Below are positions 17,134 to 62,961 of a DNA stretch of 64,000 bases, piece by piece; the stretch's first letter is position 1, and the number at the start of each line of letters is the position of its first letter. The notes under the pieces were generated by a model. It saw only the letters and a list, made by a program, of their open reading frames with translations. It was not told the DNA's origin and did not search any database. Origin of the DNA: an uncultured Rikenellaceae bacterium (GTDB taxonomy: Bacteria; Bacteroidota; Bacteroidia; Bacteroidales; VadinHA17); assembly GCA_964638545.1 (NCBI GenBank), contig CAZXAM010000009.1:2935-66934 (forward strand), read 5' to 3'. The translations under genes were made by a program, and so were the position numbers.

Positions 17134-17268
<135 letters not shown>

Positions 17269-21266: not shown

Positions 21267-22100
21267 TTAATTGTTAAATGAATTTATCGTTTTTCTGATC
21301 GCAACGAGCTTTTTCAACAGATCATCCATAAGTGCAAGATTCAGCATGTTTGCACCATCTGATTTTGCTTTAGCAGGATCGGGATGCGTTTCAATGAATA
21401 TGCCGTCAGCGCCGACACTTATGGCTGCCTTTCCGATGGTCTCTATCATTTCCGGGTTGCCTCCCGAAACTCCTGTCTCCTGGTTAGGCTGCTGAAGAGA
21501 ATGCGTTATATCCATGATAACAGGGACCTTGTTCTTCTGCATTATTGGAATATTCCTGAAATCTACTACGATATCCTGATATCCGAACATGGTGCCCCGG
21601 TCGGTAACCATTATTTTCTCATTTCCGGAATCCCTCACTTTTTCAATTGCAAACTTCATCGATGCACCTGAAAGGAATTGACCTTTCTTTATGTTGATCC
21701 ACTTTCCTGTTTTTGCAGCAGCTGCGAGAAGGTCGGTCTGACGGCAGAGAAATGCAGGTATCTGAAGTATATCAACATACTGCGCGGCGAGATCTGCCTC
21801 ATCAGGATTATGTATATCGGTAATCACGGGAATGGAAAACTTTTTCTTTATGCCGGCAAGTATCTTTAAGGCTTTCTCGTCGCCTATGCCGGAAAATGAA
21901 TCAATTTTTGATCTGTTGGCTTTTCTGTAGGATGCCTTGAAAACATACGGGATCTTGTATTTGTCAGAAAGTTTACAGAGGACTTCAGCTATCTGGTTGA
22001 CAATCTCTTCTCCTTCCACGACACATGGTCCTGCGATCAGAAGAAAATTACCAGTCTCTCCGTATTTTATTCCGGGAATTTCCTTAAAGCCTTGGTTCAT
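21267..22100 (-). CDS. kdsA: 3-deoxy-8-phosphooctulonate synthase
   Basis: LIAGPCVVE, FKASYRKANRS, ITDIH, IPAFLCRQTDLL, DITHSLQ and ETHPDP motifs. Confidence 0.9.
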   Translation of the reverse strand: MNQGFKEIPGIKYGETGNFLLIAGPCVVEGEEIVNQIAEVLCKLSDKYKIPYVFKASYRKANRSKIDSFSGIGDEKALKILAGIKKKFSIPVITDIHNPDEADLAAQYVDILQIPAFLCRQTDLLAAAAKTGKWINIKKGQFLSGASMKFAIEKVRDSGNEKIMVTDRGTMFGYQDIVVDFRNIPIMQKNKVPVIMDITHSLQQPNQETGVSGGNPEMIETIGKAAISVGADGIFIETHPDPAKAKSDGANMLNLALMDDLLKKLVAIRKTINSFNN

Positions 22101-22169
22101 TCAGGTGTAAAACGTAAAGTTAACAAAATATTCTCCTGATATTCAAATATCATACCAGAGTGAAATTCA

Positions 22170-22268
22170 CTCTGTGGAACTCTGTGCTTCTCCGGATTTA
22201 CTCTGTGGAAGTTTTTCTTTTCAGGAACTTGCACAGAGAGACACAGAGAACCACAGAGCTTCACAGAG
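22170..22268. repeat. inverted blocks of the heptamer CTCTGTG (x3) and CACAGAG (x4), phased every 10 bp
   Basis: CTCTGTG at 22170, 22180 and 22201. CACAGAG at 22232, 22242, 22252 and 22262. The array ends 4 nt from the rarA stop. Confidence 0.95.
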
Positions 22269-22272
22269 AAGA

Positions 22273-23571
22273 TTATTTGTCATAATCGTATATATCTTTC
22301 CAGAGGTTCTTTAGCCTCTTCCTGATTTCTTCCTCTTTGGGAGTATTCCCAGGATCGTAAAACTGCGTGCCTTTTATTTCTTCAGGCAGGTAATTTTCTT
22401 TCACGAAGTTGCCTTCAAAATTATGAGCATACTGATATCCCTTGTGATACCCGAGATCCTTCATCAGCTTTGTTGGGGCATTTCTCAGGTGCAGCGGAAC
22501 CGGGAGGTCACCATGTTCCTCAACAGACCCTGATGCATTTTCAATTGCCATATAGGAGGCATTGCTTTTGGGCGACGTTGCAAGGTAAACAGCAGCTTCT
22601 GCAAGTATTATCCTTGATTCGGGCCATCCTATTACATTCACAGCCTCAAAGCACGACTGCGCCAGGAGGAGGGCATTTGGGTTGGCCAGGCCTATGTCCT
22701 CGGCTGCCAGAATGATCATCCGCCTGGCAATGAACTTTAAATCCTCCCCGCCGGCTGTCATCCTGGCAAGCCAGTAAACAGCGGCATTGGGATCGCTGCC
22801 CCTTATGGATTTTATGAATGCGGAAATTATATCGTAATGCTGCTCACCGTTCTTATCATACATGGCAAGATTCTTCTGAACAATGGTGAGAACCTTTTCA
22901 TTATTGATCGTTATCTTCTCTTCTTTGCCCTTATCTGCTTCAGATGAAACCACAAGCTCCAGAGCATTGTAGAGCTTCCTCGCATCGCCTCCTGAAATTC
23001 TTATCAGGGCTTCATATTCCTCAATAACTACATTATAGACTGAAAGGTAAGTATCCTTTTTAAGAGCTTTATCCAGCAGATCCCTGAGCTGCTCTTCACT
23101 GAGCGGATTCATTGTGTAAACCTGGCATCGCGAAAGGAGAGGAGATATGACTTCAAAAGAAGGATTTTCCGTAGTTGCCCCTATAAGTGTAATTATGCCT
23201 TGCTCGACAGCGCTCAGAAGCGAATCCTGCTGCGATTTATTGAAACGGTGTATTTCATCGATGAATAATACCGGATTAGGCTGATTGAAAAATTGCTGTT
23301 TCTTTGCCTTTTCAATAGTCTCCCTGACATCTTTAACACCTGAATGAACGGCGCTCAGGTGAAAGAATGGACGTTTGAGAGTGTGGGAGATGATCCATGC
23401 CAGAGTTGTTTTTCCTACACCGGGAGGTCCCCAAAGTATGAATGAAGGAATATTTCCCGATTCAATTACTTTTCTTAATACCGCACCCTTTCCGACCAGA
23501 TGCTCCTGTCCGCAAAACTCATCAAGGCTCTTTGGCCTCAGCCTGTCTGCAAGCGGTTGATTCGCCAGCAT
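22273..23571 (-). CDS. rarA: replication-associated recombination protein A (AAA+ ATPase)
   Basis: [15 protein letters not shown], Walker [20 protein letters not shown], and C-terminal MgsA-type YYDP-like region. Confidence 0.9.
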
Positions 23572-35720: not shown

Positions 35721-35790
35721 CACCCAGCACCCAGTACCTTGTGCACCCCATACCCTGTACCTTATACCTTGTACCTTGTACCCCGTACCC
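35721..35790. repeat. 7-bp tandem array, 10 units (CACCCAG x2 then TACCTTG/TGCACCC/CATACCC/TGTACCT/TATACCT/TGTACCT/TGTACCC/CGTACCC)
   Basis: Counted directly. It starts 18 nt after the stop at 35702 and shares the GTACC core with the 17171 array and the CCCAG core with the 38481 array. Confidence 0.9.
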
Positions 35791-47950: not shown

Positions 47951-47961
47951 CGTTTGTGTTG

Positions 47962-48034
47962 TGATCTAGCTGGGGCTCGAACCCAGGACCCCATCCTTAA
48001 AAGGGATGTGCTCTACCAACTGAGCTACTAAATC
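47962..48034 (-). tRNA. tRNA-Lys (anticodon UUU)
   Basis: Reverse complement is GATTTAG TA GCTC AGTTGGTA GAGC A CATCC CTTTTAA GGATG GGGTC CTGGG TTCGAGC CCCAG CTAGATC A. It folds as a canonical cloverleaf; CCA is not encoded. Confidence 0.9.
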
Positions 48035-48059: not shown

Positions 48060-48123
48060 CTGGACCCTTCCGCAAAGCGGAATGCTCTACCTCCCGATAG
48101 CTATCGGGATGAGCTACTAAATC
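48060..48123 (-). pseudogene. tRNA-Lys-derived module 1 (5' acceptor strand, D-arm with 18-nt palindrome insert, non-canonical anticodon hairpin, no T-arm 3' half or acceptor 3' strand)
   Basis: Reverse complement is GATTTAGTAGCTCA[TCCCGATAGCTATCGGGA]GGTAGAGCA TTCCG CTTTG CGGAA GGGTCCAG. Its 5' end is 89 nt from that of the true tRNA. Confidence 0.7.
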
Positions 48124-48148: not shown

Positions 48149-48213
48149 CTGGACCCTTCCGCGAAAGCGGAATGCTCTACCTCCCGATAGCTATCGGGAT
48201 GAGCTACTACTTC
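48149..48213 (-). pseudogene. tRNA-Lys-derived module 2
   Basis: Reverse complement is GAAGTAGTAGCTCA[TCCCGATAGCTATCGGGA]GGTAGAGCA TTCCG CTTTCG CGGAA GGGTCCAG. The spacer (TTCTTTTTTATTGTGAAATAAT) is the same as in front of module 1 and the tRNA. Confidence 0.7.
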
Positions 48214-62585: not shown

Positions 62586-62774
62586 ACTTTCAAATTAGTG
62601 ATAAATAAAAGTCATAAAGATACTTTCATCTTCATTATAAAACGAAAACAAGTTATAAGAAATTAGATTAAAAGAGTCTTTTTAACCGCTAAAGGGCCGA
62701 GCGTTAAGGAGGCTCTCTTATAAGGCTGTTCAGCATGTTAATTGAAGAACTTACACTGAGGAAACCCGAAGTCC

Positions 62775-62845
62775 CACAGAGGAACACAGAGTAGTCAAGT
62801 TTTGTAACTCTGTGTAACTCTGTGACTTCTCTGTGAAACTCTGTG
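62775..62845. repeat. second CACAGAG (x2) / CTCTGTG (x4) phased inverted-block element
   Basis: CACAGAG at 62775 and 62785. CTCTGTG at 62808, 62818, 62829 and 62839. Confidence 0.95.
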
Positions 62846-62961
62846 TAATTAAAAATTGTTCTGAATAAAAAAATCAAAAAAAATGGTAAGATTGTTGACT
62901 TTTGAGACAGTCTCTGGCGAAGGAGCCAGCACACGCTGTATTCAGTAATTGCATAATTAAG

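Follow-up and report, generated by a model that had tools for sequence, protein, structure and literature searches.

The repeat between rarA and kdsA in the window (the whole stretch of 64,000 nucleotides that was analysed) is, to judge from its letters, a gene-less relative of the GxxExxY word-array cassettes and not itself a cassette. This name stands for a grouping defined here, with a purine arm upstream and a pyrimidine arm downstream on the sense strand of the gene. In its dispersed behaviour the element is REP-like, and in its design it is GxxExxY-cassette-like. In the explanation that we prefer, and which we hold to be moderately probable as a whole, it would be a gene-less member of a family of small cassettes in which each arm repeats a short word (CACAGAG in one, CTCTGTG in the other), with three or four free bases after each word and with outer aagaacTTA heads. 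The window copy, located after the stop codon of rarA and before the kdsA promoter, would then have arms and nothing else: the 3'-type arm first, the heads next and the 5'-type arm last. In favour of this are the same arms around GxxExxY genes, presence, absence and exchange at orthologous sites, conservation of the heptamers but not of the spacers, agreement between word and nuclease subfamily and a strong predicted hairpin. What appears to be new here is the cassette design of word-array arms around GxxExxY genes, of which a literature search on CACAGAG/CTCTGTG, GxxExxY, PDDEXK_3 and IVS protein gave no description.

Layout of the element and distribution of its family

Table 1. Features of the rarA-kdsA interval and of a second family member, in window positions.
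Feature	Position	Strand	Description
RarA/MgsA-type AAA ATPase gene	22273..23571	minus	upstream gene; stop codon abuts the element
Purine arm	22232..22268	+ strand reading	four exact CACAGAG in 10-bp steps
Loop	22208..22231		24 nt; two decayed head sequences, here gaagttt...aggaacttg
Pyrimidine arm	22170..22207	+ strand reading	CTCTGTG gaa CTCTGTG ctt CTCCGGA ttta CTCTGTG
Same arm as 3' purine arm	22170..22207	minus (transcribed)	CACAGAG taaatCCGGAG aag CACAGAG ttc CACAGAG
kdsA-proximal spacer	22101..22169	minus	contains box aatattttgttaactttac at 22114-22132
kdsA (3-deoxy-8-phosphooctulonate synthase)	21267..22100	minus	downstream gene
Second family member	62750..62854		divergent spacer; aagaacTTA-cactgag-...-CACAGAG gaa CACAGAG, 16-nt loop, CTCTGTG x4, TAA

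The heptamer positions given by a first-pass annotation of this DNA, and the exact 10-bp steps it had claimed for the right-hand block, were borne out when the letters were read again: CTCTGTG starts at 22170, 22180 and 22201, with the degenerate unit CTCCGGA in phase at 22190, and CACAGAG starts at 22232, 22242, 22252 and 22262. In the minus-strand mRNA, the rarA-proximal arm reads CUCUGUG four times, beginning 4 nt past the rarA stop codon. The heads have the family consensus TAAGTTCTT / AAGAACTTA, and the two decayed heads of the loop also pair with each other. The kdsA-proximal spacer with its box is probably the promoter and leader of kdsA, from its likeness to the Bacteroidetes promoter motif TAnnTTTG, so that the element would sit upstream of the promoter, in the 3' region of rarA. 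Among 28 orthologous rarA-kdsA spacers the box recurs with variations in most species, whether the element is present or absent, and the empty spacers (23-67 nt) contain little beyond it.

The genome surveyed (3.23 Mb in 81 contigs, 43.5% G+C, 94% complete) contains 394 copies of the CACAGAG/CTCTGTG heptamer, 158 of them in 33 clusters, and all clusters but two are located between ORFs. A genome-wide census, which the first-pass annotation had proposed, gave copy number, polarity and neighbours; the rarA-kdsA element is one of about 30 dispersed loci. The phasing is retained in the other copies of this genome, where same-strand spacings are 10 bp in 66 cases, 11 bp in 9, 21 bp in 12 and 20 bp in 5, and also elsewhere in the same taxonomic order. 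Each unit consists of an aagaacTTA head, CACAGAG, often gaaatCCGGAG, and then two to four further CACAGAG, set apart by free spacers of 3-4 nt. In this genome most copies have gaaatCCGGAG as their second unit, and the 66 spacers include 29 different triplets. An arm is made up of a head and two to six tandem decamers of word plus spacer, and a single arm is not self-complementary. Units occur singly or as inverted pairs of both polarities. The second element that had been placed at 62775 exists and belongs to the same family, with its blocks (62775-62845) in the opposite order to the rarA-kdsA copy, that is, in cassette order with the heads outside. Neither target duplications nor terminal repeats beyond the 9-nt heads were seen in the copies of this genome. 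Sister word families of the same design are present as well, among them GATTGCA with period 8, CGCAAAG with 9, CACAAAG with 10 and GAATGAC with 11; sister-family periods include 7, 8, 9 and 11.

In this genome, the arm order of the rarA-kdsA copy ('---+++') is found at gene 3' ends, the copies starting 4-52 nt past the stop codon, mostly within 12 nt, and the '+++---' order is found mostly in divergent spacers. A tie between arm order and gene context was dropped, as the pattern was not reproduced among 119 loci from other genomes.

Of the 24 genomes examined from the rest of the genus, 22 have the array pattern. It also occurs in some further families of the order and, patchily, in the phylum, where 25 of 201 sampled genomes have it. 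The first-pass annotation had set the element apart from ordinary REP or MITE copies. A family with a defined design does stand, but its behaviour, with about 30 loci here, presence throughout most of the genus and a patchy occurrence in the phylum, is that of dispersed REP or MITE repeats. A cross-phylum scan (one genome per species, three words at 10-bp steps) gave at least 119 loci. Among the matches listed, about half are from Bacteroidota, several loci each are from Anaerolineales, Ca. Parabeggiatoa and Bdellovibrionota, and others are from Acidobacteriota, Gemmatimonas, Pirellulales, Geobacterales, Iodobacter, Undibacterium, Alphaproteobacteria and one Methanosarcinales MAG. Most of the listed loci have the same inverted-block design, and many end in AAC-CACAGAG...CTCTGTG-GTT. 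An attC/integron reading of these AAC...GTT ends was dropped, because the copies stand singly between housekeeping genes and the ends are inconsistent with the attC consensus. Only 16 matching stretches were found in viral contigs, so phages are no obvious carrier. In two Acidobacteriota MAGs (L029 and L011), CACAGAG arms 150-650 bp apart enclose non-coding DNA full of the short words TGCGATG, CTTCGTG and CTTCGCG in both orientations.

Tandem short units can arise by replication slippage, and a few single matches of the wide scan have identical spacers (e.g. in Ktedonobacterales, Haliea and Limnohabitans); these are probably plain tandem repeats. For the family, an origin by chance or as a by-product of slippage, without common descent, was rejected as wholly implausible. 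The pair pattern CACAGAGNNNCACAGAG, with at most one mismatch, has 7 matches in the window versus 0.02 expected, a number reached by none of 100 shuffles (the heptamer by itself has 19 matches versus 5.7 expected). The control, the same word read backwards, gave 2 matches in the first 41 genomes and none in 201, and the copies have variable spacers and heads in common.

Predicted hairpin and comparison of orthologous sites

The sense (minus-strand) RNA of the element is predicted to form one long hairpin, built of 7-bp helices with small internal loops between them, at -52.1 kcal/mol (z = -7.8), as had been anticipated in the claim that the two blocks can pair into a long imperfect hairpin between rarA and kdsA. 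As single-stranded DNA, the element has a predicted fold of -27.1 kcal/mol (z = -5.9). In a folding comparison with the antisense RNA, the sense strand was not consistently more stable, and neither G-U wobble nor a folding advantage of the sense strand was seen. The spacers show no complementarity between the arms (mean z = -0.59) and contribute nothing to folding, while compensatory covariation of the arms is not significant (3 shared variants versus 1.35 expected, p about 0.15). That spacers do not aid folding, that arms do not covary significantly and that sense folds no better than antisense suggests that the heptamers do not have a purely structural role. The hairpin may be the form that the words take in transcripts: the copy would be transcribed as the 3' end of rarA and fold to a stem of 7-bp helices with 3x3 loops between them, which might slow decay from the 3' end or offer RNase III a cleavage site. 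Comparison with Rfam, which had also been proposed earlier, assigned the element to no family: at the gathering threshold only RNase P RNA and one tRNA pass in the window, and at permissive thresholds only sub-threshold matches to generic microRNA-precursor hairpins lie over the element.

A G+C-containing hairpin directly past a stop codon could be taken for a Rho-independent terminator of rarA. This role is very improbable, and a canonical intrinsic terminator was ruled out: the stem is not followed by a U-tract (the sense strand 3' of it reads ugaauuucacu), a consensus terminator scan of 21900-22500 gave no sites, copies of this arm order have T-rich sequence before the stem and A-rich sequence after it, and the 62775 copy is located between divergent genes.

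The orthologous rarA-kdsA spacer is empty in seven species of the genus and contains the full element in eight, while other species have half elements or palindromic repeats of another kind. Among the eight carriers, the array begins 0-4 nt past the stop codon of rarA, and each unit has a single counterpart in the alignment. Column identity among them is 84% in the heptamers versus 52% in the rest of the element and 51% in the downstream non-coding spacer. The element is taken to be at least as old as the ancestor shared by eight or more species of the genus. Conserved heptamers with freely varying spacers are as expected of recognition words. In our reading, the words would be kept by sequence-specific recognition, probably by the cassette nuclease, or by gene conversion among copies.

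At one further spacer (L143, in G064), another hairpin is present, in which three TGCGGAT face four ATCCAAA/ATCCGAA with a period of 7-8 nt; its different words imply that the rarA-kdsA spacer has been occupied repeatedly by different word families. In four others (L131, L136, L144 and L146, in G042, G003, G069 and G005, respectively), a C/G-run palindrome, ccccccttcaggggggatggggggc, lies beside a lone CACAGAG or a purine-only array. Palindromic elements that are not related to one another thus make up the spacer as a mosaic, in the manner of BIMEs.

A second orthologous site (C18:27229-27974 of this genome) was compared among congeners. It is empty in G052 and G022, is occupied by a CGCAAAG cassette in G000 and G056 and by a CACAGAG cassette in G051, and holds a gene-less CACAAAG hairpin in G067; in G009, a CACAGAG cassette is nested within CGCAAAG arms. 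In G028, the CACAGAG hairpin is an internal module of a 235-bp MITE, which has terminal repeats of its own (TTAAGTTTCGCAAGT/ACTTGCGAAACTTTAA) and an 8-bp target duplication in the one copy that could be checked. Contigs of the G028 draft assembly end at such repeats, and the many uniform copies at its contig ends are explained by the MITE carrying the hairpin. A MITE with terminal inverted repeats and target-site duplication was rejected for the copies of the genome studied here, as these features were seen only in the G028 MITE.

Another small palindrome, TCCCGATAGCTATCGGGA (18 nt), is present upstream of the tRNA-Lys gene at 47961-48034, where it replaces the D-loop in two tandem truncated 5' copies of tRNA-Lys (48092-48109 and 48182-48199, minus strand). 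The anticodon-arm region of the truncated copies reads CTTTGCG or CTTTCGC, and ARAGORN calls the intact tRNA only. The palindrome is found at about 32 places in the genome (e.g. C21:37249, C24:39170, C1:9331 and C17:55111), nearly always nested in other palindromes, namely CACAGAG, CGCAAAG and CACAAAG arms, CCGGTNGCCG arrays or GGGGGTGAGT stems. It behaves like a very small element inserting into hairpins.

The element might instead serve the host as a REP- or BIME-like mRNA element, its hairpin protecting the rarA message from 3' exonucleases or modulating translation termination, with the link to the nuclease incidental. We regard this as unlikely, if the strongest of the alternatives. The predicted hairpin is strong, the copies of this arm order lie close behind stop codons both in this genome and in the eight carrier species, the heptamers have been conserved over speciation, and in a wider sample 40 of 44 classified copies are in tandem and convergent spacers versus 4 in divergent ones. 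However, pure structural selection predicts pairing spacers and covarying arms, neither of which is seen, the sense strand has no folding advantage, and 8 of 30 copies in this genome are in divergent spacers. Structure alone also fails to explain why one word goes with one nuclease clade across phyla.

Nuclease genes with the same arms

Full-length members carry a gene for a GxxExxY PD-(D/E)XK nuclease of about 123 amino acids, which stands either within the pair of arms or immediately 5' of a complete arm-pair hairpin. The NCBIfam names of the proteins concerned are GxxExxY protein (TIGR04256, PF13366, PDDEXK_3) and four helix bundle protein (TIGR02436, PF05635). In this genome, short-word arrays in both orientations bracket all four PF13366 genes and all nine PF05635 genes, as split arms or with a complete hairpin on each side, and most of the genes have their own word. 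No GxxExxY gene with pure CACAGAG arms was found in this 94%-complete genome. In the same genus, CACAGAG arms surround GxxExxY genes in G014 (L166), G009 (L167) and G051, and the arms of L167 end in heads identical to those of the family (aagaacttaCACAGAG). Elsewhere, CACAGAG-armed GxxExxY genes are found in a Chitinophagaceae MAG, Undibacterium, Iodobacter, two Alphaproteobacteria, Acidobacteriota, Geomonas, Citrifermentans and Bdellovibrionales. Among the nearest database homologues, four on long contigs were looked up, and each of these has a CTCTGTG array right after the gene. At L166, L167, L229 and L230, CACAGAG is upstream and CTCTGTG downstream of the gene; at L231 and L232, a complete CTCTGTG x4-TAA...TTA-CACAGAG x4 hairpin is located 3' of the gene, which is the arm order of the window element. 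The window copy agrees with these cassette arms in word, head and 10-11-10 spacing, and is without a nuclease gene, having just the short loop between its arms.

In a tree of 59 nucleases, a single clade (98/98 support) contains every one of the 13 CACAGAG-flanked genes, together with 10 of the 11 genes flanked by CRCAAAG-type words, while 11 of the 14 genes with AT-ending words fall outside it. The word labels require 23 changes on this tree, and so low a number was found in none of 200 shuffles (mean 33.7). Word type thus follows nuclease subfamily, which implies that gene and arms are inherited or transferred together. The number of genes per genome does not track the number of arrays: G018 has 165 array matches and 2 genes, G020 has 20 matches and no gene. 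More than 8000 close homologues of the GxxExxY proteins were found by sequence search. The function of PDDEXK_3 was still given as unknown in a superfamily survey of 2012 (PMC3424549). A PDB sequence search with the nuclease gave nothing meaningful, and an AlphaFold model from a 32-sequence alignment has a mean pLDDT of 54, too poor for fold comparison.

At L166 (positions 1489-1905, G014:C4), the GxxExxY ORF reads through its own right arm, so that the protein has a tail, NLCVPLCLLCATLCN, derived from the CTCTGTG array, and its stop codon is the TAA of the head. Over-long GxxExxY gene calls, of 138-149 amino acids versus the usual 123, are common in the list of homologues. In annotating such genes, ORF extensions like the LCVPLCLLCATLC tail of L166 should be taken as read-through into the arm.

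Spacers of the genome also contain many other tandem arrays of 7-11 nt, with words such as TGCAATC, GTCATTC, CCTGGAA, ATCCGAA, CCCTGAG and GTACCGA. Words of the same sort make up the arms of PF05635 cassettes (e.g. C66:9777-10079, C31:35338-35652, C64:6663-6977 and C16:25093-25407), and the heptamer arrays at 17134-17268 and 35721-35790 of the window are available for comparison with them. Such solitary arrays may be gene-less arms of four-helix-bundle cassettes.

Agreement of word type with nuclease subfamily would also fit a putative dedicated protein that binds the heptamers cooperatively, as in an iteron-like array one helical turn apart on one face of the duplex, the element then acting on DNA and not RNA. 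Conserved words with free spacers, a 10-11-10 spacing that averages about 10.3 bp in Bacteroidales and the lack of covariation between the arms are all consistent with such an array. The reading is possible but doubtful, and its helical-phase argument is weak, to go by the spacings in other genomes. The one-turn step emphasised in the first-pass annotation turned out not to be general: CACAGAG has a spacing of 10-11 bp in Bacteroidales, but of 8, 9 or 10 bp in the cassette flanks of other phyla, and sister families have periods of 7, 8, 9 and 11. Strict inverted pairing fits a stem as well, and the genome contains no cognate gene.

Under the preferred explanation, a gene-less member of the GxxExxY cassette family, the gene-less hairpins would either be related to the cassettes as non-autonomous forms or serve them as landing sites. 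Several observations count against this explanation. The arms of the window copy are in the reverse order to those of a cassette, an order that we could not derive mechanistically. The genome has no GxxExxY gene with pure CACAGAG arms, gene counts do not follow array counts, and its copies have neither target duplications nor terminal repeats other than the heads. The arms do not covary significantly, the spacers contribute nothing to the fold, and the sense RNA is not consistently the more stable one. The four-helix-bundle cassettes share the design without the nuclease, so the arms may belong to the carrier, with the genes as passengers. To our knowledge, no function has been assigned to the 23S rRNA IVS proteins. 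With GxxExxY and IVS-protein genes inside word-array stems, and thousands of gene-less stems after housekeeping genes, there is a concrete candidate substrate for both proteins. The design would account for many short tandem arrays in intergenic spacers of Bacteroidota and other sediment bacteria.

A further-reaching and more tentative proposal, which we think less likely to be right than wrong, is that the GxxExxY PD-(D/E)XK nuclease recognises the word arrays as its sites, and that nuclease and arrays together form a new class of mobile element in more than 10 phyla, moving or homing into hairpins. Gene-less arm pairs would be its landing sites, nested insertions such as that in G009 its footprints, and the cassettes of 23S rRNA IVS proteins a parallel branch of the same carrier. 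If true, this would be an undescribed class of mobile element, with gene-less arm pairs as dispersed landing sites.

Comparison with known repeat systems

Cyanobacterial STRR are heptamer repeats. TAACTGA heptamer direct repeats are known from Beggiatoaceae, Cyanobacteria and some Bacteroidetes; they are contiguous, are located just upstream of start codons and have no spacers, inverted partner block or linked gene (MacGregor 2015, PMC4679880). Like the TAACTGA and STRR repeats, the family described here repeats one exact heptamer between genes and is patchy across phyla, suggesting horizontal spread; unlike them, the CACAGAG arrays have spacers, an inverted partner block and a linked gene. 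Iterons, Pho boxes and SARP heptamers occur as single regulatory sites, each at a given promoter or origin. They share the 7-nt words and the 10-11-bp steps, whereas the arrays described here are dispersed and inverted, with no linked regulator.

Resemblance to MITEs and mobile insertion cassettes lies in the relation of non-autonomous, gene-less copies to gene-bearing elements and in presence or absence at orthologous sites. In contrast to MITEs, the copies in this genome lack a transposase, a target duplication and any terminal repeats other than the heads, and their spacers vary among copies.

With the REP/BIME units and REPIN doublets of Proteobacteria, the family shares short, dispersed, intergenic palindromic units, often just past stop codons, which occur as inverted pairs of both polarities in tens to hundreds per genome and possibly form mRNA hairpins. 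In a REP, however, the unit is one imperfect palindrome, about 20-40 nt long, that carries a conserved tetranucleotide at its 5' end, whereas the arms described here are arrays of a 7-nt word with free spacers; the word recurs across phyla, and the associated gene encodes a PD-(D/E)XK nuclease and not a Y1 TnpA-REP transposase, as in REP/REPIN-RAYT systems. Three Y1_Tnp (PF01797) genes are present in the genome (C16:15852-16193, C29:46574-46921 and C5:74781-75014), and CACAGAG is found in the flanks of none of the three. Membership of a REP/REPIN-RAYT system was rejected on this ground, and because the unit is not a single palindrome. The C16 gene is flanked by the palindrome ggtgcNNNgcacc and the C5 gene by ggcacggatt..ccgcgccagcgg; these RAYT/IS200-like genes with their own REP-like palindromes (ggtgcNNNgcacc; ggcacggattacaaatccgcgccagcgg) are a separate repeat system in the same genome.

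The 23S rRNA intervening sequences are stem-flanked inserts that are removed by RNase III. The element described here differs from them in its location between protein-coding genes instead of in rRNA, and in having relatives that carry the GxxExxY nuclease. It is like the intervening sequences, with their IVS protein (PF05635, TIGR02436), in that a small ORF or nothing is found between complementary stem-forming arms, and in this genome word arrays bracket the nine PF05635 genes in the same way.
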